A stretch of DNA of 42,718 nucleotides from an uncultured Spirochaetaceae bacterium (GTDB lineage: Bacteria; Spirochaetota; Spirochaetia; SZUA-6; Bin103). This document shows positions 20,283 through 32,797 of the stretch, one piece after another (position 1 is the first letter of the stretch; each line of letters begins with the position of its first letter). Both the position numbers and the translations under genes were made by a program. Location of the stretch: NCBI GenBank assembly GCA_964346995.1, contig CAYFXT010000001.1, positions 1 to 42,718 of the forward strand. Direction: 5' to 3'. Under the pieces are notes generated by a model. That model saw only the letters and a list, made by a program, of their open reading frames with translations, was not told the DNA's origin and made no database searches.

Positions 20283-21266
20283 GTGGAGGCGAACTCACAT
20301 CCCGAAGCGGCCCGGCAGATGGCAGCGGCATGCTGCGATCTGTTGGAGAGCCTGGAGCCGGAGCAACGTTCCCACGCCCTCTTTCCCTATCTGGACGGCG
20401 AGCGTCTGTTCTGGTACTACCCGCCGCTGAACCGCCACGGCCTGCCGCTGCTGGCGATGAGTGACGAACAGCAGCGGCTCGCGAAGCGCGTTCTGGAGGC
20501 GGCGCTGTCGGAGCGGGGCTACGAGCAGGCGTGCGCGATCATCGATCACGAGCGGATCCTCGGTGAGCAGGAGCGTGCCGCGGGGCAACTGCACTGGGCG
20601 CGCGACCCGGGACGCTACTACTTCACCGTGTTCGGCGATCCGCGCGGCAGTGACCCGTGGGGCTGGCGAGCGGAGGGACACCACTTGTCGCTGCACTTCA
20701 GCGTATGGGGCGGACGGGTGATCTCCACCACGCCGTTCTTCTTCGGCGCCAACCCGGCCGAGGTGCTGCACGGACCGAACCGGGGCTTGCGCATCCTCGC
20801 GCGCCGCGAGGATCTGGCGTTCGAGCTCATGGAAAGCCTGGATCAGGCGCAGCGCGCACGGGCGATCATCTACGAGAAGGCTCCGTACGACATCCTCACC
20901 TACAACAGCACGCGCGCGGTGCTGCCGCGCGAGGAGGGGTTGCCGGCAGGCTGCCTCGATGCGACCGGGCAGGCGTTGCTCACCGCGTTGGTGGCGACCT
21001 ACGTGGGGCAGGTACGCACCGACGTCGCGCGTCACAAGCTGGAGCATCTGCACCGCGACGGCGTCGGCCACCTGCGGCTGGCGTGGGCCGGTCCCATAGC
21101 TCGCCGCGAGGGCCACTACTACCGCATCCACGGCGGCAACTTCCTGGTCGAGTTCGACAACTGCCAGAACGAGGCCAACCACGTGCACTCGGTGTGGCGC
21201 GACGTGGAGAACGACTTCGCCCAGGACGTGCTGCGCGACCACCTGCTGCTCTACCATACCCACTGA
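20283..21266 (+). CDS. DUF3500 domain-containing protein
   Basis: Family-typical blocks are present: WYYPPLNRHGL, WGWRAEGHHLSLHF, FFGANPA, NHVHSVWRD..NDFA.D.L..H. The start is GTG 20283, with ATG 20319 as an alternative. No signal peptide is evident. Confidence 0.75.
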   Translation: MEANSHPEAARQMAAACCDLLESLEPEQRSHALFPYLDGERLFWYYPPLNRHGLPLLAMSDEQQRLAKRVLEAALSERGYEQACAIIDHERILGEQERAAGQLHWARDPGRYYFTVFGDPRGSDPWGWRAEGHHLSLHFSVWGGRVISTTPFFFGANPAEVLHGPNRGLRILARREDLAFELMESLDQAQRARAIIYEKAPYDILTYNSTRAVLPREEGLPAGCLDATGQALLTALVATYVGQVRTDVARHKLEHLHRDGVGHLRLAWAGPIARREGHYYRIHGGNFLVEFDNCQNEANHVHSVWRDVENDFAQDVLRDHLLLYHTH

Positions 21267-21279
21267 CGGCGGTCGCGCA

Positions 21280-21298
21280 GGCCGTCCTGCCGACGGCC
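21280..21298. terminator. GC hairpin between convergent genes (DUF3500 / Rieske); candidate bidirectional terminator
   Basis: GGCCGTC-ctgcc-GACGGCC is a 7-bp stem with a 5-nt loop. It is centred in the 50-nt gap between stop codons 21264-21266 and 21317-21319. No U-tract is present. Confidence 0.25.
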
Positions 21299-21316
21299 GC
21301 GGGGAGCGTGCCGCCG

Positions 21317-22381
21317 TTACCGCGACTGGCTGCGCAGCGCGTAGCGCCGCTCGGCGTAGGCGGCGTCTTCGACCCACAGGCGGCGTGCCGATGCCTGCAT
21401 GCGGCGTCGCACCAGTCCGGCGGCACGCATCGCCAAGCGAAATCCGAACCGCTCGGAGGTGGCCACCGTGGCTTCGACGATGGCGCAGATCCCGGGCCGC
21501 ACCGGGGTGGCGTGCGTCTCCACCACCGACCCGGCACCCTCGCCGTCGATGATGGTCATGACGATCGTGCGCGGGTCGGGGCAGTGAAAGCGAGCGTCCA
21601 CCTCCACCCCCATGCTCCGGGTGGCGCGATACAGCACCCGCACGGTGATGCTGTCGTCGCGTTGCTCCAGGACTGCGAGGCTGCCGAACGAGTGCGGATG
21701 GAAGTGCACGCCGTGCCACGGATCGAAGCGGTTGGCGATGATGTCCTGCGGCTCGCAACGCGCCTCCATGCGGATCACGGCGTCGATGCCGCTGCTCGGG
21801 CGGGCGCACAGGTATGGGCGAGGCGACGCCGCCTGCTCGCCGTCGAGACGCACCCAGAACAGTACGCCGTCGTCGTGGCTCGGCAGGGGCCGCCAGCCGG
21901 CGTGCCCCTGCGGCCCCAGTACCAGACCGTGCCAGGGGCACACCACACAGCCGTCGCGCACGCGGCCGTCGGCCAGCGACGCCCCCAGGTGCGGGCACGC
22001 ATTGGGGGCCACCAGTGGTCCGTCCGCGCCGCGCCACGCGACCAGTTCGCGGCCCGCGATCCAGTAGCGGCGTGGCGTATCACCGACGGCGCGCGAGGCG
22101 TCGATCGCATACCAGCCGCCGGAGGGCAGCAGGGCGGCGCGGCGTACCGCCTGCCTGATCCAGCGCGGATCCGATTGCCGCCAGTCGGGCATGGCGCGCC
22201 GGTCGCCGGCGGGGAGCGGACCGGCCGGCGGGCGGCCGAAGCGCACGCCTCCGACGCGAGCGTGCCGGCCGGCGGGCGATGCCCGCGCGTCGTCGTCGTT
22301 CGCCTTTCGCGTCGTGGAGCGGCCGCGCCGATTCGTCCGCAAGTCACGTCCCGCCGGCGATGGGCGTGCATCGGGTTTCAT
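21317..22381 (-). CDS. Rieske [2Fe-2S] domain protein with a ~200-aa C-terminal domain; last gene of the carotenoid operon
   Basis: The Rieske motif is intact as CPH-x16-CPWH (CPHLGASLADGRVRDGCVVCPWHG). The C-terminal part carries His-rich blocks (NRFDPWHGVHFHPHSF). The start is ATG 22381 (31 nt after the upstream stop), with ATG 22192 as an alternative that removes an Arg/Pro-rich N-terminus. Confidence 0.8.
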   Translation of the reverse strand: MKPDARPSPAGRDLRTNRRGRSTTRKANDDDARASPAGRHARVGGVRFGRPPAGPLPAGDRRAMPDWRQSDPRWIRQAVRRAALLPSGGWYAIDASRAVGDTPRRYWIAGRELVAWRGADGPLVAPNACPHLGASLADGRVRDGCVVCPWHGLVLGPQGHAGWRPLPSHDDGVLFWVRLDGEQAASPRPYLCARPSSGIDAVIRMEARCEPQDIIANRFDPWHGVHFHPHSFGSLAVLEQRDDSITVRVLYRATRSMGVEVDARFHCPDPRTIVMTIIDGEGAGSVVETHATPVRPGICAIVEATVATSERFGFRLAMRAAGLVRRRMQASARRLWVEDAAYAERRYALRSQSR

Positions 22382-22412
22382 GGTCTTCGGCGTCGCGGAG
22401 CGGACGTGCCAC

Positions 22413-24581
22413 TCATGCGAAGATTCCGGGAAGCAAGCCGTGACTGCGCACCGAGGAGAGCGGCTCTGCCGGAAGGTTCCAGCGCTCGAGGATGGCGTTG
22501 GCTGCGGTGATGCCGCTCGCCGCGGCGCGCTCCATGAGCGCGGCCGGCTGCTCGAGGCGCACGAAGTCGCCCGCCAGATACACCCCGGGATGTGGCGTGA
22601 CCACGCCCGGCCGGCTGGCGTGCGATCCGGCCCCGAACGCCGGGCAGTCGCGGCGCAGCAGAAACGCTTCGTCGATCACCCGCGCAGCCTGAGTCTCTGG
22701 ATAGAGCCGGTGCAGGCCGGCGATCAGTGCCGCCCTGATTTCCGCGCCGGTGGCGTTCTCCGGCACCGCGTAGGCGTGCAATTCCACCACCGCACCGCCG
22801 TGGACATCGGCCCAGGCGCGGCTCTCGTCCTCGAACAGGTGGAACAGAGAAATGTTGTCCAGCAACGGCAAGCCGGCGGTGCCGGCGAACGGCACCCGGC
22901 CCGGATCGGTGGGGCGGTCCAGCCACAGCCGCCACACCGCGAACGGCAGGGTGGTCGCCAGGGAGCGAAGCGCCGTGGCCCATGCCCCGCGCGGGAGTGG
23001 CGTCTCCGGCAGCAGCCGCTGCAAGCCGGGTACGTCGAGGGCAAGCACCAGGGCGTCGGCGCCGATCGACGCCCGGCCGTGCTCGCGAGGAATCACCACC
23101 CAGCGGCCTGCTTCCCGCCTGATGCGGCTGATCGGGGTTCCGGTCGCGACCTGCACACCCAGGTTGGTCAGGTAGCGGCGCAGCGGTTGCCAGATGGCGG
23201 TCGAGAACGGCGCCCGCGCGACGTCGAAGATCAGTCCCTCGCGGCTCCCGGTGAAGTAGAAGTGGAACATCATGAGCAGCTCGGCCGCCGACATCTCCCG
23301 CTCCGGGTTGAAGAAGGAGTGCGCGAATACATCGAACAGCAGGCGCCGCGCGGCGGCCGGGAAGCGCAGCGAATCGAGGTAGTCGGCGGCCGAACGGCGG
23401 TCGTGGCGCCGGTAGGTGTGGTGGGCATCGAACGCCAGCATCGCCAGCGCCTGGCGCACGCCGACGCGCCGCAGCGCGTGCCGGGTCAGCTCCGGTGTAC
23501 GGCGGGTGAGCGCAACCACGTTCCACGGTGTCCGTTTCGGCAGACCGACCAGGGACTGACGGGCGCCGTCGGGACCCAGGATCGGGTAGTCCTCCAGCGG
23601 CACCAGGATGTCGAGGTCCGGCGAGATGCGCCGCAGCAGGTTGCGCAGGTTGTAGTACTGGCGAAAGAAGGCGTGGAAGCCGCGTGCCATCTGTACGGTC
23701 TCGCCAGTCGCGACGCGCAGCGGGAAGGCGCCGGCGCGGCCGCCGAGCGCGTTCTCCCGTTCCAGCAACACCGTTGCGACGCCGCGTTCGGCGAGTACCG
23801 TGGCCGCCGCCGTGCCGGCGATGCCGCCTCCCACCACCACCGCCGTACGCCGTACCGCGTCGCGGCCGTCGTAAGCGGGCGCCGTGGCCGCCGGCCGGCG
23901 CGCCAGGAAGGAGTGCACGATGCCGCGCTGCCATCCGCTCACCGGTAGCGTGCGCACCGCCGTGAAGCCGGCGCGATTGAGGCGCCGTTCGAAGGCCCTC
24001 CGGCTGTCGAACGCCAGTACGCTGTCCCTGAGGTAGGTGAACAGGCTGCCCTCACCGGCTGCGATGCGCGCCGCCGGACGCACGATCAGGTTGGTCACCG
24101 TACGCCACAGCAGGCGACTGGCGCGTGAGCCGGCAACGGAATATTCGTGGAAGCAGACCGGTGCGGCAGGGCACAGCAGGTCGCGTACGGCGGCCAGGCA
24201 GGCGTCGGCATCGACGACGTTGCGAATGCCGTAGGCCATCAGGACGCCGTCGAAGCGGCCTTCCACGCCGGCGCCGCGCGGGTCCATCGCGTCGCCGTGC
24301 ACGAATTGCACGTCCGCCAGCTCGGGACGGGCCCGCGCCGCCTGCAGCATGTCGGCGGCGGCGTCGAGGCCGACCAGCGTGGCCTGCGGGTAGGTGGCGC
24401 GCAGCGCCAGGGTCGACTGGCCGGTGCCGCAGCACAGGTCGAGGATGCGCGCGTCCGGCGCCAACTCCAGGCGGCGGGCGCTCAACCGTAGATGGCGGCG
24501 GTAGCCGGGGTTGAGCGCCACCAGGAGGTCGTACGCATGGGCTACCCGGTTGAAGCCGGCGGCCAGCTCATCCCCGATCAA
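22413..24581 (-). CDS. Fusion protein: N-terminal class I SAM-dependent methyltransferase plus C-terminal FAD-dependent Pds/Zds/CrtU-type carotenoid desaturase
   Basis: The MT domain shows ILDLCCGTGQS...VHGDAMDP...FDGVLMAYGIRNV. The oxidoreductase domain shows the dinucleotide fold VVVGGGIAGTAAATVLAERG..V.LLER...GGRAG, FHAFFRQYYNLRNLL (plant-type desaturase block) and the C-terminal VYLAGDF. The preferred start is TTG 24581 (GGAG 5 nt upstream, no overlap with crtB). In-frame alternatives are ATG 24647 and the track's 24701. Confidence 0.8.
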   Translation of the reverse strand: MIGDELAAGFNRVAHAYDLLVALNPGYRRHLRLSARRLELAPDARILDLCCGTGQSTLALRATYPQATLVGLDAAADMLQAARARPELADVQFVHGDAMDPRGAGVEGRFDGVLMAYGIRNVVDADACLAAVRDLLCPAAPVCFHEYSVAGSRASRLLWRTVTNLIVRPAARIAAGEGSLFTYLRDSVLAFDSRRAFERRLNRAGFTAVRTLPVSGWQRGIVHSFLARRPAATAPAYDGRDAVRRTAVVVGGGIAGTAAATVLAERGVATVLLERENALGGRAGAFPLRVATGETVQMARGFHAFFRQYYNLRNLLRRISPDLDILVPLEDYPILGPDGARQSLVGLPKRTPWNVVALTRRTPELTRHALRRVGVRQALAMLAFDAHHTYRRHDRRSAADYLDSLRFPAAARRLLFDVFAHSFFNPEREMSAAELLMMFHFYFTGSREGLIFDVARAPFSTAIWQPLRRYLTNLGVQVATGTPISRIRREAGRWVVIPREHGRASIGADALVLALDVPGLQRLLPETPLPRGAWATALRSLATTLPFAVWRLWLDRPTDPGRVPFAGTAGLPLLDNISLFHLFEDESRAWADVHGGAVVELHAYAVPENATGAEIRAALIAGLHRLYPETQAARVIDEAFLLRRDCPAFGAGSHASRPGVVTPHPGVYLAGDFVRLEQPAALMERAAASGITAANAILERWNLPAEPLSSVRSHGLLPGIFA

Positions 24582-24600
24582 TCCGACTCCGGCGTCCGGC

Positions 24601-25566
24601 TCATGCCACTTCCAGATCGGCGAAACGCAGCACGCGGCGCGGTGCATGGAATCTTCCACGCGGCACCCGCCAACGCGCCGGCAACTCGCCAACGGCGGCA
24701 CCGGTGGCGCCGAGCACCGCGGCCAGCTTACCGGCCAGCGGCACTACCGCCCGACCCGCGGTCACGTCGCAGCCCGCCTGTCTGATGCGTCCGCCGATCG
24801 CCGCGTAGATCGCGCGGGCGGCGCGGATCGACAGCGCCGCGCGCCACGGCAGCGCCAGGAACCCCGCCTCGGCGGCGCCGTAGAAGCGGCCGGCATTCGC
24901 CAGCACCTCGCCGACCACGGCGCGCAGCGGATCGCGCGCCGTGCCGGGGAAGGCATGGCCGAGTTGCGCCGGCAGGTCGCCGAGCCGGGCGCGATCGAGG
25001 CAGGTGCGCGGCAGGTAGATGCGGCCCAGATGCCAGTCCTCCAGCACGTCGCGGCAGATGTTGGTGAGCTGCATTGCCACGCCGAGTTGCGCGGCCGCCT
25101 GCAGGGCGGCGTCGTCGCGCAACGTCAGGACGTGGGACATCATCAATCCGACGGTACCCGCGACGCGGTAACAGTAGTGCAGCAGGTCGTGCAGGTCGGC
25201 GTATACCGGTCGATCGATATCCGTACTCATGCCGGTCAGCATCTCGCGCGGATAGTGCAGCGGCATCGCCGTGGCGCGCACCACCGCGCCGAACGCATCG
25301 ACCACCGGGTCGCCGGTCGAAGCGCCTTCGGCGAGGCGCTCCAGCTCCGCGTGCAATTGCGCGAGCGCCACCCGGCTTGCGGCTGGCGGCACGCCGTCGA
25401 CGGCATCGTCGGCGCGCCTGCACCAGGCGTACACCACCAGAGCGCCGCGCCGGCTATGGCGCGGTAGCAGGCGCGCCGCCAGGGCGAAGCTCCTCGACCC
25501 GGCGGCGATGCGGCGCCGGCAGTCGGCCTCCACCGCCGTCGTTATGCGCAGCGCGGTATGGCTCAC
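24601..25566 (-). CDS. crtB: Phytoene synthase
   Basis: Contains SFALAARLLP, YAWCRRADDAVDG (first Asp-rich motif), YCYRVAGTVGLMM and QLTNICRDVLEDWHLGRIYLP. The GTG start at 25566 overlaps the crtI TGA (25563-25565) as GTGA. Confidence 0.93.
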   Translation of the reverse strand: MSHTALRITTAVEADCRRRIAAGSRSFALAARLLPRHSRRGALVVYAWCRRADDAVDGVPPAASRVALAQLHAELERLAEGASTGDPVVDAFGAVVRATAMPLHYPREMLTGMSTDIDRPVYADLHDLLHYCYRVAGTVGLMMSHVLTLRDDAALQAAAQLGVAMQLTNICRDVLEDWHLGRIYLPRTCLDRARLGDLPAQLGHAFPGTARDPLRAVVGEVLANAGRFYGAAEAGFLALPWRAALSIRAARAIYAAIGGRIRQAGCDVTAGRAVVPLAGKLAAVLGATGAAVGELPARWRVPRGRFHAPRRVLRFADLEVA

Positions 25567-27116
25567 GGGGCCAGGTCCGCCAGGACCAGATCGGCCGTGG
25601 CGCGCGCCGAGTTGATCACGCCCGGGATACCGGCACCGGGGTGGGTGCCGGCGCCCACCAGATAGAGCCCCGCGATATGGGGATCGCGGTTGGGCACCCG
25701 AAACCAGGCGCTCTGGGTGAGGGTCGGCGCCAGCGAGAATGCGCTGCCGTGGTAGGCATGCAGGGCAGTGCGGAAGTCCAGCGGCGTCATCCAGCGGGAC
25801 ACTACGACGTGGCGGCGCAGATCGGGAAGGACCCGTTCCAGGGCGGTGAGGATACGTTCCGCGTAGGCCGGAGCGATCCTATCCCAGGTCAGCGCCGCGT
25901 TGCCCAGGTGGGGTACCGGGGACAGTACGTAGAACGCACCGTGTCCCGGCGGCGCCAACGACGGGTCGGTGACGTGCGGCGCGTGCAGGTAGAGTGAGAG
26001 ATCTTCCGGCAGCCGCGCGCCGTGGAAGATGTCGGTCAGCAGTTCCCGGTAGCGTGCTCCGAACAGTACCGAGTGATGGACGACGTTGTCGCGGTAATCG
26101 CGGTCGGTGCCGAAGTAGAGCACGAACAGCGACATCGACCACACCGAGCGTTCCAGGCGGCGCTGGCGCCGCGCCGCGCCCGCGTCGCCGCGGTACAACA
26201 CGGCATAGGTGTGATGCACGTCGGCGTTGGACACCACGGCGTCGAACGGTTCGAGTCGCGCCGCGCCCGCGTGCGCGTAGCTGAGCCGGTGCGTCACCTG
26301 GCCGCGGTCTTCGGTCGGCACGACGTGGCGCACCGGGCAGTCCAGCAGCAGCCGTCCGCCGAGGTCGGTGAACAGCCGGGCCAGGGCGCGCACCAGGACG
26401 CCGACCCCGCCGCGCGGGTAGAATACGCCCCAGCGGCGTTCGAGGAAGTGGACGAGGGTGTAGATGGCGCTGGTCTCGAACGGATTGCCGCCCACCAGCA
26501 GGGTGTGGAAGCTGAGCGCCTGACGCACCCGCTCGTCGCCGATGAAGCGCGCCACGGTGCGGTACACCGAACGGTCGGCGCGCAGGCCGATGAGTTGCGG
26601 CGCGACCCGTACCATATCCCAGAACCGCAGGAAGGGGGTGGCGGCCAGTTCCTCGTAGCCGGTCTGGAACACCGCTCGCGTGTAGTCGTGAAAACGGCGG
26701 TAACCATCCCGATCGGGCGGATTGCGCCGTCCGATCTCCGCGGCCAGAGCGCCGCCGTCGGCGCAGTAGTCGAACCGGTCACCATCCGGCCACAGCAGCC
26801 GGTAGAGCGGATCGACGGCGATCAGCTCTACCCGGTCGGCAAGTGCGCTGCCGGCGACCGCGAACAGGTCCTCCAGCAGCGTCGGGTCGGTGATCACCGT
26901 GGGGCCCATGTCGAAGGTGAATCCACCCTGACGCCAGACGTACGCCCTGCCACCCGGCTCGGCGCGAGCCTCGAACAGCGTGGTCGCGATGCCCGCCGCC
27001 TGCAGGCGAATGGCGGCCGCGAGCCCACCGAAACCGCTGCCCACAACCGCCACCCGGCGGGTGCGTCGGGCGGCGGGCGCTGCGCCGGGCGGCGGCGGCG
27101 CGCGGCTGGCGGTCAC
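25563..27116 (-). CDS. crtI: Phytoene desaturase (CrtI type)
   Basis: Contains VAVVGSGFGGLAAAIRLQAAGI..TLFEA...GGRA and the CrtI C-terminal signature LYLVGAGTHPGAGIPGV. GTG 27116 overlaps the crtY TGA (27113-27115) as GTGA; the track start GTG 27122 is also possible. Confidence 0.93.
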   Translation of the reverse strand: MTASRAPPPPGAAPAARRTRRVAVVGSGFGGLAAAIRLQAAGIATTLFEARAEPGGRAYVWRQGGFTFDMGPTVITDPTLLEDLFAVAGSALADRVELIAVDPLYRLLWPDGDRFDYCADGGALAAEIGRRNPPDRDGYRRFHDYTRAVFQTGYEELAATPFLRFWDMVRVAPQLIGLRADRSVYRTVARFIGDERVRQALSFHTLLVGGNPFETSAIYTLVHFLERRWGVFYPRGGVGVLVRALARLFTDLGGRLLLDCPVRHVVPTEDRGQVTHRLSYAHAGAARLEPFDAVVSNADVHHTYAVLYRGDAGAARRQRRLERSVWSMSLFVLYFGTDRDYRDNVVHHSVLFGARYRELLTDIFHGARLPEDLSLYLHAPHVTDPSLAPPGHGAFYVLSPVPHLGNAALTWDRIAPAYAERILTALERVLPDLRRHVVVSRWMTPLDFRTALHAYHGSAFSLAPTLTQSAWFRVPNRDPHIAGLYLVGAGTHPGAGIPGVINSARATADLVLADLAP

Positions 27117-28462
27117 GGGCACGACTGCGCTGCGCCCCGCCCGGGGCCACGCTGTCGTTTCCGCCGGTCATCGACAGCGTCGGCGTCCGGACGGTCGAAG
27201 CCCGGCGCAGTGCCGGATCCGTGCGGCTCACGCCTGCTGTGCTGCGCCGCTCGCTCGGCAGCGGGCAGGTGCGAGTCTGCTCCGGCCGCGAGGCGCGCGC
27301 GACCGCCATGCGCGGCTCGCCAATGGCTCGGCGACAGGCCGCGCGGCGGGCGACCGCTCAACAGGCGCAGCTTGTCGCCGCCGGTCAGCCGCAGGGCAAA
27401 GAAACGGCGGATGGTGGGCTCCGGCAAACCGAAGAAGCGTGCGAAGATGTTGCGCCGCGCCGCGGCCGGGTAGGCGTGAAACAGCAGCCGGTTGAGCAGG
27501 CAGCAGAAGCGGGCGCGGCGCTGCAGTTGGCCGCGCGCGGCGGCCGCGGCGGCCGGCAGCCGTGCCGCCGGCGTCGTCGCGGCCAGCACCGCCAGCTCGG
27601 CCGCCAGCGGCAGCGAGTAGCCGGTGCCGGGATGGAACCAGCCGCCGCGGTAGCCGCCGTGCACGATGCCGGCCGCCGCCCGGGTCGGCGGATCCGGCAT
27701 CCGCCACGGCATCGGCAGGACGCCCTGCTCCGTTCGGGTCACCGCCTGCGCGCGCCAGCCGTGGCGGCGCAGCCATGCGGCAATGGCCTGCTGCCGCTGC
27801 GCCACGTCGAGGTGCGGTCGATCCGAGAACGAGGTGTCCTCGACCAGAGCGCGGCGCCCGGAGAGCGGCAACACGTACATGAAGCGGAACCCGTCGTACT
27901 GCGGCACGGTGGCGTCCATCACCAGGGGCCACTCCAGGCCGTGCGGTTCGTGCAGCGTGATCTCCTGCCCGTAGAATTTCTGGTAGCCACCGCGCGCGCC
28001 GGCACCATCGGCTCCGCGGGCGTCGACCACGGTGGCGCCGCGCACCGTACGTCCATCCGCCAGGTGCACCATGCCGGGGGCGACCCGATCGACCTGCGCG
28101 TGCTCCCACGCCAGCACGCCATCGCGGCCGGCGAGCAGCGCCAGGACCACGGCGCGCAGGCGCACGCTGGCGATCATGGCGTAAGGGGTGTGCAGGCGGC
28201 GCCGGAATCCGGGGAAGCGCACCTCGTAGCTGCTCCACCTGTGGCTGACGAACGGGTCCACCTGCCGGCGCATGGCCGGTGAGAGATCGCTTTCGTAGAA
28301 ACACCAGGTGTGGTTGCCGCCGATCTCACCGCGCTCCAGCAGAGCCACGCTTGGGCGTGGTCCCGCCGTTCCCAATCCCGGTGAGGCATACAGCGCCGCC
28401 ACGACCAGCGCGTTCTGCAACCCGCCTCCGCACAGAATCAGATCCGCCTCGTGCGCCGCCAC
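27113..28462 (-). CDS. crtY: Lycopene beta-cyclase (CrtY type) with a ~60-aa C-terminal extension
   Basis: Contains DLILCGGGLQNALVVAAL, GGYRGGWFHPGTGYSLP and FFGLPEPTIRRFFALRLTGGDKLRLLSGRPP. The GTG start at 28462 lies 5 nt after the crtE stop. Confidence 0.88.
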   Translation of the reverse strand: MAAHEADLILCGGGLQNALVVAALYASPGLGTAGPRPSVALLERGEIGGNHTWCFYESDLSPAMRRQVDPFVSHRWSSYEVRFPGFRRRLHTPYAMIASVRLRAVVLALLAGRDGVLAWEHAQVDRVAPGMVHLADGRTVRGATVVDARGADGAGARGGYQKFYGQEITLHEPHGLEWPLVMDATVPQYDGFRFMYVLPLSGRRALVEDTSFSDRPHLDVAQRQQAIAAWLRRHGWRAQAVTRTEQGVLPMPWRMPDPPTRAAAGIVHGGYRGGWFHPGTGYSLPLAAELAVLAATTPAARLPAAAAAARGQLQRRARFCCLLNRLLFHAYPAAARRNIFARFFGLPEPTIRRFFALRLTGGDKLRLLSGRPPRGLSPSHWRAAHGGRARLAAGADSHLPAAERAAQHSRREPHGSGTAPGFDRPDADAVDDRRKRQRGPGRGAAQSCP

Positions 28463-28467
28463 CGCCG

Positions 28468-29559
28468 TCAGGGACGCCGCGCCAGAACGGCCCCGATCAT
28501 ATCGAGCAACGCCGCGCGGTGCGCCGGCTCCACGGTCAGCGCCGCAGCCCGTCGCCGCGCTTCGGCCGCGGTGCGCTCCAGGTGGGTGCCGACCAGCTCG
28601 CGGATTCCGGCGCGGTCGACCGCCGCGCGCACGCGCAGCAGGTCATCGAAACGCAGCGCGCGGTTGCCGAACAGCGGAGCGATCGCGGCCCACTCGGCCG
28701 GCCGCAGGCGCCGGCTCAACAGCGCATAGAACAGCGTGTGTCGTCCCTCCCGCGCGTCATTGCCGATCGGCTTGCCCAGCTCCTGCGCGTCGCCGAACAG
28801 GTCGAGCTCATCATCGATGATCTGGAACATCTGTCCCGTGCAGTGCCCGATGGCGCCGAGCTCGGTCACCGTGTCGGCGTCCAGACCGCTCAACAAGCCG
28901 CCGACCGTTAGCGGTAGCGCGCACGAGTAGCCGGCGGTCTTCTGCGCGTATACCTCGAAGATCGCGCTGTCGTCGCACCGATGGTCGAGGGCGAGCCGTA
29001 TTTCGTGCATCTCGCCGAGGCCGGCGGCGCCGACCGTCCGGGTGATGACGGTAAGCAGTCGCTGCTTGGTGGCGGCGTCGACGCCGAGTTGAGCCAGCAT
29101 CTCGAAGGCGAAGAAGAACCCCACGTCGCCGGCGCACAACGCCATGCTGCGCCCCACGTGGGCCGCCCGCCTGGGGTCACGCCGGGCGGCGACCCGCGCA
29201 TAGCGCACGTGCCACGCCGGCAGACCGCGCCGCGCCTCGCTACGGTCGATGAGGTCGTCATGAATCAGCATGGCGGAGTGCAGCAACTCCAGCGCGGCCG
29301 CGCAGCGCAGTACCTCCTCCGGCAGCGGTCCCGCGCGTCCGATCCGATAAGCCAGGATCACCAGCATGGCGCGCATCATCTTGCCGCGGCATACGTACCG
29401 CGCATAGCCGCGAGCCACGTCGCCGTTGGCGTCGCCGTGCTCCTTGGCGTCGAGGAATTGTTCGAGAAACCGCTCTACCGCCTGCCGGTCGCCCGCAACG
29501 AACGGAACCGGCAGGTGCGTCGGTGCGCGCCGGGACTGTGTTCGCAGCGGTGCCGCCAC
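28468..29559 (-). CDS. crtE: Polyprenyl (geranylgeranyl) diphosphate synthase
   Basis: The first Asp-rich motif is LLHSAMLIHDDLIDRS and the second is GQMFQIIDDELDLFG. The GTG start shares 1 nt with the upstream TAG (29559). Confidence 0.88.
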   Translation of the reverse strand: MAAPLRTQSRRAPTHLPVPFVAGDRQAVERFLEQFLDAKEHGDANGDVARGYARYVCRGKMMRAMLVILAYRIGRAGPLPEEVLRCAAALELLHSAMLIHDDLIDRSEARRGLPAWHVRYARVAARRDPRRAAHVGRSMALCAGDVGFFFAFEMLAQLGVDAATKQRLLTVITRTVGAAGLGEMHEIRLALDHRCDDSAIFEVYAQKTAGYSCALPLTVGGLLSGLDADTVTELGAIGHCTGQMFQIIDDELDLFGDAQELGKPIGNDAREGRHTLFYALLSRRLRPAEWAAIAPLFGNRALRFDDLLRVRAAVDRAGIRELVGTHLERTAAEARRRAAALTVEPAHRAALLDMIGAVLARRP

Positions 29560-30836
29560 TACCGGTGCAGGTCGTACACGCGGTAGCCGTCATCGCGGAT
29601 TCGCTTCAGATAGAAGGAATCGCGCGGTATGGACCTCTCGCAGCCGTGGCTCGGAGCTCGGTAGCCGGCGGCGTTGGTGCCGTCGTCGGCCACCCAGCGG
29701 TCGTAGTCGTCGGAGGGCGCTTCCTGTGCGTGGTTGAGGGCGGAGTCCATGTCCCAGCGGCGGATCACCTCCGGAGCGCGCTCGGCGACCTGCCCACTGA
29801 GCGCCACGGCGGTGTTGCCGGAACCGTAGGAAAGCATCAGCAGCCGTTCGCCGACCATGCCGTCGCCGCGTCGCTGGCAGCGGCGGTTCAGCAGGGAGGC
29901 GAGGCTGAGGAACACCGATCCCGAGTACAGGTTGCCGACGATCGCGGCCGGCTGAATCGAAGCGTCGAAGTCGCGCTGCGCGAGGTACCGTTGCACGTCC
30001 GCTCCCGAATAGCCGAGGTACCTGGTGACCAGCGATCCCATCATCTCCAGTGGGAGATGGTGGTAGGGCGCATGGAAGGCGAACAGGTCGGTGTTGCGCA
30101 ACGTCTCGGCCGGGGTTTCGCCAGCGCGGTTGCAGTGGTCCAGGAACGCCTCCTCGATCGTCTCCTTGTAGCAATGGATCGAAAACGAGCCGCGCACGCG
30201 CGGCGTCTTGGCTCCCACCGGGCGGAAGAAGTCGTCCACGTCCCGCGATGCGTAGCCGGCGCTGGCCACGTCCAGCTCCACCAGACCGCAGCCCCGTTCC
30301 GCTATCATGGCGACCGCACCGGCGCCCTGGGTAATTTCGGCGCTGGTACCGGGTGCGTAGCGCGCAACGTCGGTACAGATCACCAGACCACGGTCGTTGC
30401 TGACCCGGCTCAGGGAGAGGAGCGCATTGACGCCGAGCAGTGAATAGGTGCCACCGGCGCAGGCGTGCTGCGTCTGGAAGGTGGCAATGGTGCTCGGAAT
30501 GGGAAAACCGGCGGCCCGCAACATGCCGCCGACGTGGGCGGCGATCGGCTTGGCCAGATCGGTTGCGGATTCGGTGCCTACCGCGATGTAGCGAAGGCTC
30601 GCGATGGCGCTGTCGCTCATGCGCGACAGCACCTGCATGGCCGCCTGAGCGGCCATGGTCACCGCATCCTCCCAGAAATGGGGAAAGCGCACGGAGATCT
30701 GTCCCGTTTTCTGGATGGCGCGGTCGAGAATGCGCTGGATGGTCGGATTGGACAATGCGTAGCGTTCGAGCAGGCGGCTCAAGCGCATGAGCAGCTTGGG
30801 GATGTAGACGGCCATGTCGCCGATACCGGTGGTCAT
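29559..30836 (-). CDS. Hydroxymethylglutaryl-CoA synthase family protein
   Basis: The HMGS catalytic triad contexts are present: GTESATDLAKP (Glu), TQHACAGGT (Cys) and FAFHAPYHHL (His). Also present are GNLYSGSVFLSLASLL and the C-terminal FYLKRIRDDGYRVY block. ATG 30836 has GGAGGA 6 nt upstream; the track's 108 extra N-terminal codons are rejected. Confidence 0.82.
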   Translation of the reverse strand: MTTGIGDMAVYIPKLLMRLSRLLERYALSNPTIQRILDRAIQKTGQISVRFPHFWEDAVTMAAQAAMQVLSRMSDSAIASLRYIAVGTESATDLAKPIAAHVGGMLRAAGFPIPSTIATFQTQHACAGGTYSLLGVNALLSLSRVSNDRGLVICTDVARYAPGTSAEITQGAGAVAMIAERGCGLVELDVASAGYASRDVDDFFRPVGAKTPRVRGSFSIHCYKETIEEAFLDHCNRAGETPAETLRNTDLFAFHAPYHHLPLEMMGSLVTRYLGYSGADVQRYLAQRDFDASIQPAAIVGNLYSGSVFLSLASLLNRRCQRRGDGMVGERLLMLSYGSGNTAVALSGQVAERAPEVIRRWDMDSALNHAQEAPSDDYDRWVADDGTNAAGYRAPSHGCERSIPRDSFYLKRIRDDGYRVYDLHR

Positions 30837-30862
30837 GTGCGCTCCTCCACAATCAGTTCCCG

Positions 30863-31786
30863 TCAAACGGGGTGTTGAACGGTATACCGCAGACGCAATG
30901 TAGCGCGAACTCCATCCAACCCTGCAACTATCGCACCTATCGACTCGATCTCCGGGCGCGCTGCGTCGGCTCCGGCACCGCCGCACAGGATGATTGTACC
31001 CGACTCGATCGACCCTGCCACGACCCGCAAGTCGTGGAGGACGGCCGGCGGCGGGGGGCAGCGGGTCATGCTGATCAGTACCGCACCGGGCCGGTGCACG
31101 GCAACGGTCGCGACGATCCCGGCCGCCGGTACGTCGGCGCCAAGATACACCACGCGCCATCCCTCGCCCGCTGCCACCACGGCCGCCGCCAGGATGCCGA
31201 GCTCATGATGTTCCCCGCTTGCGGTGCCCGCCACCGCCACCGGCGCCTCGACCGAGAGGCGCTGCATGCCGAGCGCTGCGTCCAGGAACGCGCGGAAGGT
31301 AGTCGTGGCAAGGTGCTCGTGGTGAGGCTCCAGGTCGCCACTCGACCATCGCGCACCGATGCGCCGCATCACCGGGGCAATGAGATGCTCGACTACCGCG
31401 ACGTAGCCGTGGTTCACCGCGGCGCGATGCAGCGTGGCCGTCAACCGCCAGGGGTCGAGCACGGATATCGCCTGCTCGCAGTCTTGCATCTGCCGCGCGA
31501 GCGGAACCGCTGACGCGTCCGCGGTATCATGGTGGACCAGCCTGATGATCTCCGCATCGGTCAACCCGGCTATCTCGCCGATCGCCAGACCACCCTGCTG
31601 CGCGGTACGCAGGAGCTGTACGCGCCGAATGTCGCGCTCCGAGTAGCGACGATGCCTGCCTCCGGAACGGTCCGGGACGATCGCTCGATAGCGAAGTTCC
31701 CACATGCGCAATACGTGCTCGCTGAGCCCGGTGCGGCGGGCAACGGCGCCGATCGGGTAGCGGGCAGTTTCGGTACGGCTGCTCAT
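30863..31786 (-). CDS. carH: CarH/LitR-type light-responsive regulator: MerR HTH plus cobalamin-binding domain
   Basis: The MerR HTH is YPIGAVARRTGLSEHVLRMWELRY....PDRS.GGHRRYSERDI. The B12-binding helical-bundle motif W-x9-EH is present (WSSGDLEPHHEH), as is the lower-ligand motif E-x-H-x-x-G (GEHHELG). ATG 31786 was chosen because 31787-31864 has a low-GC, non-coding character. Confidence 0.85.
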   Translation of the reverse strand: MSSRTETARYPIGAVARRTGLSEHVLRMWELRYRAIVPDRSGGRHRRYSERDIRRVQLLRTAQQGGLAIGEIAGLTDAEIIRLVHHDTADASAVPLARQMQDCEQAISVLDPWRLTATLHRAAVNHGYVAVVEHLIAPVMRRIGARWSSGDLEPHHEHLATTTFRAFLDAALGMQRLSVEAPVAVAGTASGEHHELGILAAAVVAAGEGWRVVYLGADVPAAGIVATVAVHRPGAVLISMTRCPPPPAVLHDLRVVAGSIESGTIILCGGAGADAARPEIESIGAIVAGLDGVRATLRLRYTVQHPV

Positions 31787-31801
31787 GCTGGCTTGTTCCA
31801 C

Positions 31802-31830
31802 ATATTCGCGTATGGTGAAACTGGCGTCAA
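31802..31830 (-). promoter_or_regulatory. Candidate promoter of the carH-led carotenoid operon
   Basis: On the minus strand the -35 is TTGACG (31830-31825), followed by a 17-nt spacer and the -10 GAATAT (31807-31802). An imperfect inverted repeat, TTCACCA (31819-31813) and TGTGGAA (31802-31796), brackets the -10. Confidence 0.35.
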
Positions 31831-31891
31831 GATTCGTGGTATCATGATCTAGTAGAGCACGCATATATTTCCATTTTTGTTGAGGTTCGAG

Positions 31892-32797
31892 ATGAAAATT
31901 ATCGTTACCGGGGGTACCGGGCTGATCGGATCGCGGCTCGTGCGGGCGCTGCGGGAGGCTGGCACCAAGTACCAGCCGGTGGTGCTTACCCGTGACCCGC
32001 GGCGAGTTCCGGAAGGCGTGGCCGCGGCGTCATGGCAGCTGGCGAGCGAGGCACCGCCGCGCGGCGTGCTGGACGGCGCCGCCGCGGTGATACATCTGGC
32101 GGGCGAGCCGATCTCCGCCGGGCGCTGGACGGCCGCGCGGCGGGCGCGGATCGAGGAGAGCCGTTGGGCGAGTACGGCGAATCTGGTGCGCGGGCTGGCA
32201 TCTGCACAGCCGTGCCCGCCGGTGCTGCTCGCCGGTTCCGCGGTCGGCTTCTACGGCGACCGCGGCGACGAACTGCTGGATGAGAGCGCCGCGGCCGGAG
32301 ACGGGTACCTGGCCGCGGTCTGCAGGCGCTGGGAGCAGGAGGCGACCGCGGCGGAGAAGCTGGGCGTGCGCGTAGTCTATCTGCGCACCGGTGTGGTGCT
32401 CGCCCGTGAGGGCGGCGCACTGCCCCGCATGGCGGCGCCATTTCGCCTGGGCGCCGGTGGCCGGCTCGGCCACGGGCGCCAATGGATGCCGTGGATCCAC
32501 GTCGACGACGTAGTCGGTCTGCTCCGCCACGCCCTCGCCGATGGCCGGCTGCACGGGCCGCTGAACGTGGTGGCGCCCGGCGCGGCGACCAACGCCGAAC
32601 TGACCCGCGAACTGGGCCAGGTGCTGCGGCGCCCGGCGTTCATGGTAGTGCCGGCACTGGCGCTCAAGCTGCTGTTCGGCGGCATGGGTGCGATGCTGCT
32701 CGCCTCCCAGCGCGTGGTCCCGCGCGCCGCCGAGGCGACCGGCTACCGGTTCCGCTTCGCAAACCTGGATGCAGCGCTGGCCGATCTGCTCGGCTGA
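31892..32797 (+). CDS. TIGR01777-family (SDR39U1/YfcH-like) NAD-dependent epimerase/dehydratase with a DUF1731 C-terminus
   Basis: Begins MKIIVTGGTGLIGSRL and ends with the C-terminal block QRVVPRAAEATGYRFRF..LDAAL.DLL. GAGG lies 6 nt upstream of ATG 31892. It is divergent from carH. Confidence 0.85.
   Translation: MKIIVTGGTGLIGSRLVRALREAGTKYQPVVLTRDPRRVPEGVAAASWQLASEAPPRGVLDGAAAVIHLAGEPISAGRWTAARRARIEESRWASTANLVRGLASAQPCPPVLLAGSAVGFYGDRGDELLDESAAAGDGYLAAVCRRWEQEATAAEKLGVRVVYLRTGVVLAREGGALPRMAAPFRLGAGGRLGHGRQWMPWIHVDDVVGLLRHALADGRLHGPLNVVAPGAATNAELTRELGQVLRRPAFMVVPALALKLLFGGMGAMLLASQRVVPRAAEATGYRFRFANLDAALADLLG

Follow-up and report, generated by a model that had tools for sequence, protein, structure and literature searches.

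What does a bacterium gain by joining a methyltransferase to a carotenoid-type desaturase in one polypeptide? The question is raised by a locus within 42,718 nucleotides (nt) of DNA from an uncultured Spirochaetaceae bacterium (contig CAYFXT010000001.1 of assembly GCA_964346995.1; this whole stretch is hereafter the window), where a minus-strand gene encodes both activities and is followed by a gene for a Rieske protein. The original prediction described this pair as an uncharacterised carotenoid tailoring module whose methyltransferase and Rieske partners lacked an assigned role. The module is the crtT/crtU/crtV trio of the Streptomyces isorenieratene clusters (crtEIBV/crtYTU), already known and named, with hydroxylase and methyltransferase roles proposed for two of its members (PMC5993118). 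The accompanying statement that separate methyltransferase, CrtU and Rieske genes occur together in some actinobacterial crt clusters was accurate: they are the crtT, crtU and crtV of Streptomyces, represented here by locus L039. What is new is a recurrent but lineage-restricted fusion of crtT to crtU, a single-operon layout that includes a LitR-type regulator and a 3-hydroxy-3-methylglutaryl-coenzyme A (HMG-CoA) synthase, and an unexpected host lineage. On balance we favour, with appreciable reserve, a light-regulated pathway in which CrtU aromatises β-rings, CrtV hydroxylates the resulting aryl ring and CrtT methylates, with a fusion that originated from an overlapping gene pair.

The fused crtTU gene

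The fused gene lies in a stop-free minus-strand open reading frame (ORF) at 22413-24701, of 762 codons when counted from a GTG, and the motifs on which the original prediction relied are all present where it had placed them (in the 762-codon numbering, LDLCCGTGQS at residue 87, GGGIAGTAAA at 291, GGRAG at 320, FHAFFRQYYNLRNLL at 342 and VYLAGDF at 707). The GTG at 24701 is probably not the true start, because it would make the gene overlap crtB by 100 nt. Better candidates, judged from the sequence, are the ATG at 24647, which is the choice of the gene caller, and the TTG at 24581, which has GGAG just before it, agrees with the N-termini of homologues and would give a protein of 722 residues. 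Read from the ATG, crtTU spans 22413..24647 and encodes 744 residues, equal to database protein P0001; the identical protein occurs on ENA contig ERZ25070786 ctg149864l, a metagenome contig of 273 kb to which the window as a whole corresponds. The claim that one ORF combines a class I methyltransferase with a flavin adenine dinucleotide (FAD)-dependent oxidoreductase holds, with the Pfam family Ubie_methyltran matching residues 50-250 (6.6e-18) and Amino_oxidase matching residues 294-738 over the full length of its profile (1.7e-32), alongside NAD_binding_8 (9.1e-11). The CrtT domain, a class I S-adenosylmethionine (SAM) methyltransferase of the UbiE/COQ5 superfamily with motif I (LDLCCGTGQS) and a UbiE-like AYGIRNV, occupies 23934..24554 (residues 50-256), and the CrtU domain, a Pds-type β-ring desaturase/methyl-shift enzyme of the 'isorenieratene synthase' family, occupies 22485..23843 (residues 287-739). 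Between them lies a linker at 23853..23885 that is predicted to be disordered and differs in length among fused homologues (alignment A1); in the AlphaFold2 (AF2) model of the 744-residue protein the predicted local distance difference test score (pLDDT) falls below 50 at residues 255-265.

A junction of this kind could be a frameshift or assembly artefact, as the original prediction had recognised. In most relatives the two genes lie one frame apart with a 4-nt overlap, so that a single insertion or deletion error could mimic a fusion, and in one near-identical orthologue a linker frameshift does break the gene in two. Against this, more than 50 fused clusters at 90% identity come from independent ENA, JGI, Logan and NCBI assemblies of both long and short reads, some on multi-Mb contigs. 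Their linkers vary in length and are always in frame, the fusion is found on the chromosomes of two metagenome-assembled genomes (MAGs) labelled Spirochaetia, and the isolate Actinopolymorpha rutila DSM 18448 carries a fused ORF of 797 residues. The GC content at third codon positions (GC3) is also continuous through the junction of the window gene, at 0.78-0.94 in a single frame. The independent clusters, in-frame linkers of differing length and the A. rutila ORF exclude an artefact for the window clade; with the GC3 profile added, this explanation was rejected, its chance of being correct being negligible, and the fusion is taken as real. The split orthologue itself lies on one 333-kb ENA contig as a 251-residue methyltransferase (P0132) and a 475-residue FAD protein (P0129), separated by a frameshift in a G-rich linker, and shares a 90%-identity cluster with the fused protein P0011; the cause is either an error of sequencing or a natural return to two genes.

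How common the fusion is was established by comparing fused and split gene neighbourhoods, as the original prediction had suggested, across 80 genome loci encoding a CrtU relative. crtT stands directly upstream of crtU as a separate gene in 51 (Actinomycetota, Gemmatimonadota, Myxococcota and Latescibacterota), is fused to it in three (two Spirochaetia-labelled MAGs and A. rutila) and is absent from 26 (Holophagae, Sorangium, Gammaproteobacteria, Planctomycetota and others). In 40 of the 51 loci with adjacent genes, crtU could start within a 4-nt overlap with the end of crtT, and the fusion is a real but modest, lineage-specific variant of this very common adjacent, overlapping gene pair. A change of frame in the junction of such a pair would merge the two genes, and this appears to have happened independently in the window clade and in Actinopolymorpha. 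In a neighbour-joining tree the fused window clade falls among Myxococcota and Gemmatimonadota sequences, while the fused Actinopolymorpha protein sits beside split-gene relatives in the actinobacterial half; their placement in opposite halves of the tree therefore indicates two independent fusions.

CrtU also appears, from domain content, to have fused repeatedly with other carotenoid-type enzymes. Within a representative set of 1.84 billion proteins, CrtU-like domains were found joined to Rieske plus DUF5914 domains at the C-terminus, to a heterodimer-type lycopene cyclase (PF18916) at the N-terminus, and to a UbiA prenyltransferase, a fatty-acid-hydroxylase-type (FA_hydroxylase) domain or a second amine oxidase (P0377, P0379, P0393, P0401, P0402, P0404, P0436, P0488 and P0501). 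Lycopene cyclase catalyses the step immediately before CrtU. There are two representatives of a candidate CrtU-CrtV fusion, and in each the contig breaks off within the gene, that of P0377 being 2.5 kb long; there is no such fusion among the 80 genome loci. The original prediction regarded a covalent fusion of methyltransferase and desaturase as strong evidence that the two act together; it does support a CrtT that is physically alongside CrtU, and falls short of proving it.

Tailoring enzymes and the proposed pathway

CrtU is a characterised enzyme that aromatises β-rings, and the assignment of the FAD domain to its family draws on both sequence and fold. The best match among solved structures is rice PDS (5MOG), by sequence (1.1e-9, over the entire domain) and by fold (template modelling (TM) score 0.84-0.85, root mean square deviation 3.0 Å, E 6e-26); protoporphyrinogen and amine oxidases follow at about 1e-20, and CrtI is not among the top 50 fold matches. 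The domain was thus rightly described as of the Pds/Zds/CrtU type and not the CrtI type, and the CrtI encoded in the same operon does have the distinct ending attributed to it, terminating in LYLVGAGTHPGAGIPGV. Unfused homologues about 60% identical to the domain are labelled isorenieratene synthase by JGI, and homologues in the crtT-crtU position of Streptomyces, Mycobacterium and Rhodococcus are 47-50% identical, with L039 (partly masked) and L067 serving as the Streptomyces proxies. These likenesses, together with a shared profile of model scores, bear out the CrtU-like character proposed for the domain and show it to be a predicted CrtU-family, Pds-type flavoenzyme. By analogy with characterised CrtU enzymes, it would desaturate each β-ring and move a methyl group within the ring, giving the aryl end groups of isorenieratene-type carotenoids.

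The model scores bear on another identity for this domain, namely a Pds/HpnE-like desaturase acting on hydroxysqualene or an acyclic carotene, and not a ring aromatase. No CrtU model is among the NCBIfam matches of the domain, and the best of them is HpnE (TIGR03467) at 155.8 bits, above Zds and Pds. That score is far under the HpnE cut-off of 283, and the Pds and Zds equivalogs (TIGR02731 and TIGR02732) reach only 52.7 and 57.7 bits against cut-offs of 569 and 622, so that the domain belongs to none of these families as curated. The CrtU homologues of crt clusters in Streptomyces, Rhodococcus and Mycobacterium, and more broadly those of Streptomyces, Rhodococcoides, Mycobacterium, Gemmatimonadota and Actinopolymorpha, give the same sub-threshold pattern (HpnE 116-156 bits, Zds/Pds 42-73 bits), and the HpnE match is therefore a trait of the family and not the mark of a different function. 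The setting is also a crt operon, with crtY, crtI and crtB and no squalene-hopene cyclase among the called genes, and not the hpnCD/shc context of hopanoid synthesis, and the homologues carry the JGI label already mentioned. Given the cut-off, the context and the identical pattern in actinobacterial homologues, an HpnE identity was rejected, and we regard a function of this kind as very improbable.

The gene next after the fusion, crtV (21317..22381, minus strand), encodes the Rieske protein. It carries CPH-x16-CPWH at residue 129 and N-x2-D-x2-H-x4-H at residue 217, and its Pfam matches are a Rieske domain (~21884-22114; 8.6e-12, 45 bits against a cut-off of 20) and DUF5914 (~21323-21838; 5.8e-70, 235 bits against 27), with no Pfam match beyond these two. 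The second match answers the suggestion that the C-terminal half be compared with DUF5914, a domain for which our literature search returned no papers. Residues C66/H68/C85/H88 and N154/D157/H160/H165/D276 are invariant in 24 homologues. The AF2 model (pLDDT 91.6) aligns over the whole protein, in a Foldseek search, with DdmC, KshA, guaiacol O-demethylase and SxtT/GxtA as the top matches (TM 0.6-0.69). The invariant residues and full-length fold, including a helix-grip catalytic domain, place CrtV among the α3-type Rieske monooxygenases, metal binding being predicted, and the model shows a compact yet complete enzyme of this type with a putative [2Fe-2S] site and a candidate 2-His-1-carboxylate iron site. 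Since the model fits whole α3-type enzymes, DUF5914 would represent the catalytic half of this compact oxygenase. The Rieske centre is intact and the protein a full oxygenase rather than a ferredoxin, in agreement with the original prediction. A Rieske plus DUF5914 protein in a crtU-containing cluster is by definition CrtV, and this one is 48% identical to the homologue at the crtEIBV position of the Streptomyces locus L039.

Two peculiarities of crtV and its homologues may be recorded here. The conserved portion of the protein begins near the GTG at 22246, and homologues show no conservation of the 45 codons that precede it. Some 150 nt of extra sequence (22246-22412) lie between the crtTU stop and this conserved start, which gives the CrtV ORF an N-terminal extension that is rich in Arg, Pro and Ala and not conserved; in the closest relatives crtTU and crtV overlap or abut. 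Many stand-alone Rieske plus DUF5914 homologues of the 21317-22192 stretch are labelled 'isorenieratene synthase' by JGI, the same name as is given to CrtU, and this may reflect annotation transfer via CrtU-CrtV fusions or a mixed orthologue group.

From its fold, its context and the known products of a related cluster, CrtV would hydroxylate the new aryl ring to give phenols of the 3-hydroxy- and 3,3'-dihydroxyisorenieratene type. The crt cluster of S. argillaceus yields 3-hydroxy- and 3,3'-dihydroxyisorenieratene together with mono- and dimethylated derivatives, and a 2018 proposal, made without gene tests, assigns the hydroxylation to CrtV and the methylation of 3,3'-dihydroxyisorenieratene to CrtT; both crtT and crtV are dispensable for isorenieratene itself in S. 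griseus (PMC5993118). A different oxidation would take place if CrtV attacked a ring methyl group, as SdmA does on sterol 4-methyls, leaving a hydroxymethyl or carboxyl group from which CrtT would make a methyl ester. There is precedent in CruH, which hydroxylates and oxidises an aryl methyl of renierapurpurin in synechoxanthin synthesis (PMC7395447, PMC8342508), and the closest folds to CrtV include the methyl- and O-methyl-oxidising DdmC and guaiacol O-demethylase. The Rieske domain of CrtV also has an NCBIfam match to the 4β-methylsterol monooxygenase SdmA; this match is weak (E 5.8e-4) and limited to the Rieske domain, the Pfam matches of CrtV are confined to Rieske and DUF5914, and the products known from a crtTUV-type cluster are 3-hydroxy and 3,3'-dihydroxy ring phenols, not acids. 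Methyl oxidation accordingly seems improbable, and ring hydroxylation is the reading carried forward.

The distribution of the two partner genes accords with CrtV acting first. CrtV is encoded near crtU in 59 of the 80 loci, often directly downstream of it, and the 16 loci that have CrtV without CrtT outnumber the five untruncated loci that have CrtT without CrtV, consistent with a later place for CrtT than for CrtV. In L008-L011, L015, L030, L038, L051 and L056, crtV comes immediately after crtU and crtT is absent, loci of this kind belonging to Holophagae/Acidobacteriota, Planctomycetota and Gammaproteobacteria, including a Chromatiaceae-labelled MAG. The CrtU-CrtV pair looks like the core of the module and CrtT like an optional addition.

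A UbiE-like class I SAM methyltransferase encoded directly upstream of crtU is by definition CrtT, and the N-terminal domain answers to this, here in fused form. The CrtT family keeps both SAM motif I and the UbiE-like AYGIRN motif, and the domain is a SAM methyltransferase of UbiE/COQ5-like sequence in which the SAM-binding motifs are intact. NCBIfam UbiE/MenG models match the domain over its full length at 98.8-102.9 bits against a cut-off of 216, and the MenG_MenH_UbiE subfamily model gives 90-94 bits against 158; by curated cut-offs CrtT is thus not a UbiE/MenG quinol C-methyltransferase, and its predicted membership is of the UbiE/COQ5 superfamily only. From fold, context and the S. argillaceus products, CrtT would methylate the product of CrtV, and the pathway is predicted to yield, on exposure to light, a dihydroxy-aryl carotenoid with one or two added methyl groups.

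Which atom receives the methyl group is where the principal competing version of this pathway arises. In it CrtT is a UbiE/Coq5-like ring C-methyltransferase, placing a methyl on the ring carbon ortho to the phenolic hydroxyl made by CrtV, or directly on the aryl ring, to yield tetramethyl-aryl carotenoids and not methoxy derivatives. UbiE/MenG models are the best full-length NCBIfam matches of all 16 aligned CrtT family members, Coq5 (4OBW) is the sole full-length PDB match to the family profile, and the PDB matches found with the single sequence are the aromatic C-methyltransferases CouO and NovO. The methylated S. argillaceus products were moreover proposed from molecular formula, which does not separate O- from C-methylation (PMC5993118). 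On the other side, all 16 UbiE-family scores are below the cut-off, which points to a separate subfamily, similarity among class I methyltransferases predicts the acceptor atom poorly, and the O-methyltransferase UbiG also matches eight of the 16 members. The authors of the sole product study preferred methoxy groups (PMC5993118). We therefore treat C-methylation as a possibility to be taken seriously and as rather unlikely, and retain hydroxylation by CrtV followed by methylation by CrtT, as proposed for Streptomyces, as the preferred pathway.

Several points weigh against that pathway. The relatedness of CrtT to C-methyltransferases (UbiE/MenG/Coq5, CouO/NovO), and not to known O-methyltransferases, leans away from O-methylation as far as sequence can tell. 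If CrtT acts on the product of CrtV, it is not obvious why its coupling or fusion partner should be CrtU and not CrtV, and the AF2 model of the fusion (predicted TM score 0.67, with a disordered linker) offers no confident interdomain geometry. The operon encodes no reductase or ferredoxin partner for CrtV. The probable orthology to characterised CrtU rests on Streptomyces proxies, synteny and database labels, and not on S. griseus CrtU itself, and the type of ring formed, φ or χ, is not predictable from similarity (PMC10604819). In the literature searched, no demonstration of CrtT or CrtV activity by knockout or in vitro was found, nor any later gene-level test of their roles.

A bolder interpretation denies CrtT the part of a late O-methyltransferase and has it form a complex with CrtU and CrtV, in which it would methylate ring carbon in the manner of UbiE. 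It is motivated by the repeated independent CrtT-CrtU fusions and by the 4-nt overlapping pair in Actinomycetota, Gemmatimonadota, Myxococcota and Latescibacterota; we consider it doubtful, more so than C-methylation as such.

Operon, host lineage and wider meaning

crtTU and crtV form the distal end of a single co-oriented carotenoid operon, all on the minus strand, in the order LitR/CarH–HMG-CoA synthase–crtE–crtY–crtI–crtB–crtTU–crtV. The gene adjoining the fusion is crtB (24601..25566), a phytoene synthase by Pfam (SQS_PSY, 3.9e-65) and by its top NCBIfam match, preceded by crtI (25563..27116), a CrtI-type phytoene desaturase scoring 615 bits against the crtI_fam cut-off of 238, by crtY (27113..28420), a lycopene β-cyclase at 298.5 bits against the equivalog cut-off of 215 (TIGR01789), and by a crtE/idsA-like polyprenyl (geranylgeranyl diphosphate) synthase gene (28468..29559; polyprenyl_synt, 1.3e-46). 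Because CrtE, CrtB, CrtI and CrtY are all encoded, the route to β-carotene is complete, and a supply of β-ring substrate for CrtU is thereby provided from within the same operon.

At the head of the operon an HMG-CoA synthase gene (29559..30836) follows that of a LitR/CarH-type regulator (30863..31786; MerR_1, B12-binding and B12-binding_2 in Pfam), which is likely to be the operon's light switch. This arrangement of a MerR plus B12-binding regulator and then HMG-CoA synthase before crtE is kept in two related Spirochaetia-labelled MAGs (L002 and L004 for the synthase). The presence of both genes suggests light-induced expression and a tie to precursor supply by the mevalonate pathway. A promoter and terminator scan of 20800-32200 gave nothing beyond the shuffled expectation and lends no support to the operon boundaries. 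Beyond crtV lies a convergent gene for a DUF3500 protein (20283-21266, plus strand; Pfam 9.1e-87), which is absent from the same position in L002; considered as a part of the module, it was rejected as not conserved in relatives and is probably unrelated.

The original prediction is taken to have assumed an actinobacterial host, and this was not upheld. The genomes nearest to the window are MAGs labelled Spirochaetia, with about 69% GC, and the same operon occurs in two 'Spirochaetia bacterium' MAGs (on a 7.8-Mb contig and a 5.0-Mb chromosome) with fusion proteins 73-78% identical to that of the window. The closest named relative of the LeuB encoded in the window comes from a Spirochaetaceae-labelled MAG (86%), farther named matches at 58-62% are in Spirochaetales, Spirochaetota and Desulfobacterota MAGs, and there are no Actinomycetota among its matches; because of these neighbours the host is not an actinobacterium. 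A literature search for isorenieratene with Spirochaet* returned nothing relevant, and our searches turned up no description of aryl-carotenoid clusters from a lineage of this kind.

The gene set is well known and the fusion by itself leaves the expected chemistry unchanged. crtT and crtV are kept beside crtU in at least five phyla, with their reactions so far only proposed. CrtT-CrtU fusions have arisen at least twice, and with the candidate CrtU-CrtV fusions they offer Rosetta-stone evidence for a shared substrate molecule. The cultured A. rutila DSM 18448 gives an easy experimental entry. The cluster is present in uncultured non-phototrophs among Spirochaetia-labelled MAGs, Gemmatimonadota, Myxococcota, Acidobacteriota and Latescibacterota, and given this wide spread the makers of aryl carotenoids could far exceed the green sulfur bacteria, cyanobacteria and actinomycetes, which bears on the reading of isorenieratane-type biomarkers. 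Should the C-methyltransferase complex prove real, widespread soil non-phototrophs, including a high-GC Spirochaetia-labelled lineage, would make undescribed extra-methylated phenolic aryl carotenoids, and the diagenetic products of these pigments could confuse or extend the interpretation of aryl-isoprenoid biomarkers.

Comparison with known systems

Each of the three enzymes has known relatives from which it differs. The CrtU domain is closest to Pds, represented by the rice enzyme, with which it shares only 20-21% identity; its scores against the Pds/Zds equivalogs are 52-58 bits against 569-622, and its reaction differs, being ring aromatisation with a methyl shift. CrtT has full-length homology to UbiE/MenG/Coq5, including SAM motif I and the G-x-R-N motif after β4, while remaining below every curated cut-off and residing in a crt operon, where it is fused or translationally coupled to CrtU. 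CrtV resembles DdmC, KshA, guaiacol O-demethylase and SxtT/GxtA in its whole-protein fold, with the Rieske CxH...CxxH and the D-x2-H-x4-H plus distal Asp iron site of α3-type monooxygenases; it differs from them in identity (15-19%), in being shorter (~290-310 residues), in a catalytic half classed as DUF5914, in a substrate that is presumably a C40 carotenoid, and in the lack of a cognate reductase gene nearby.

At the level of the pathway, the cyanobacterial CruE/CruH pair of synechoxanthin synthesis follows the same logic, in which a CrtU-like β-ring desaturase/transmethylase makes the aryl ring and a hydroxylase/oxidase then modifies it. CruE, however, makes mainly χ-rings, and CruH oxidises a methyl group to a carboxyl and belongs to a different, PaO/LLS1-like Rieske family. 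CruE and CruH are not known to have a methyltransferase partner.

The closest relative of the window operon is the crtEIBV/crtYTU cluster of S. griseus, S. coelicolor and S. argillaceus, which holds the same set of CrtE, CrtI, CrtB, CrtY, CrtT, CrtU and CrtV and has crtT directly upstream of crtU. In the example from S. kebangsaanensis (L039), crtY-crtT-crtU lie on one strand and crtE, crtI, crtB and crtV on the other. Light control by a B12-binding MerR regulator of the LitR type is a further likeness, being known for Streptomyces crt clusters. The window differs in that all genes form one co-oriented operon with crtT and crtU as one gene, in that HMG-CoA synthase is included and a sigma-factor gene is not, and in that its proteins are only ~44-48% identical to those of Streptomyces and are encoded in a high-GC MAG lineage labelled Spirochaetia.

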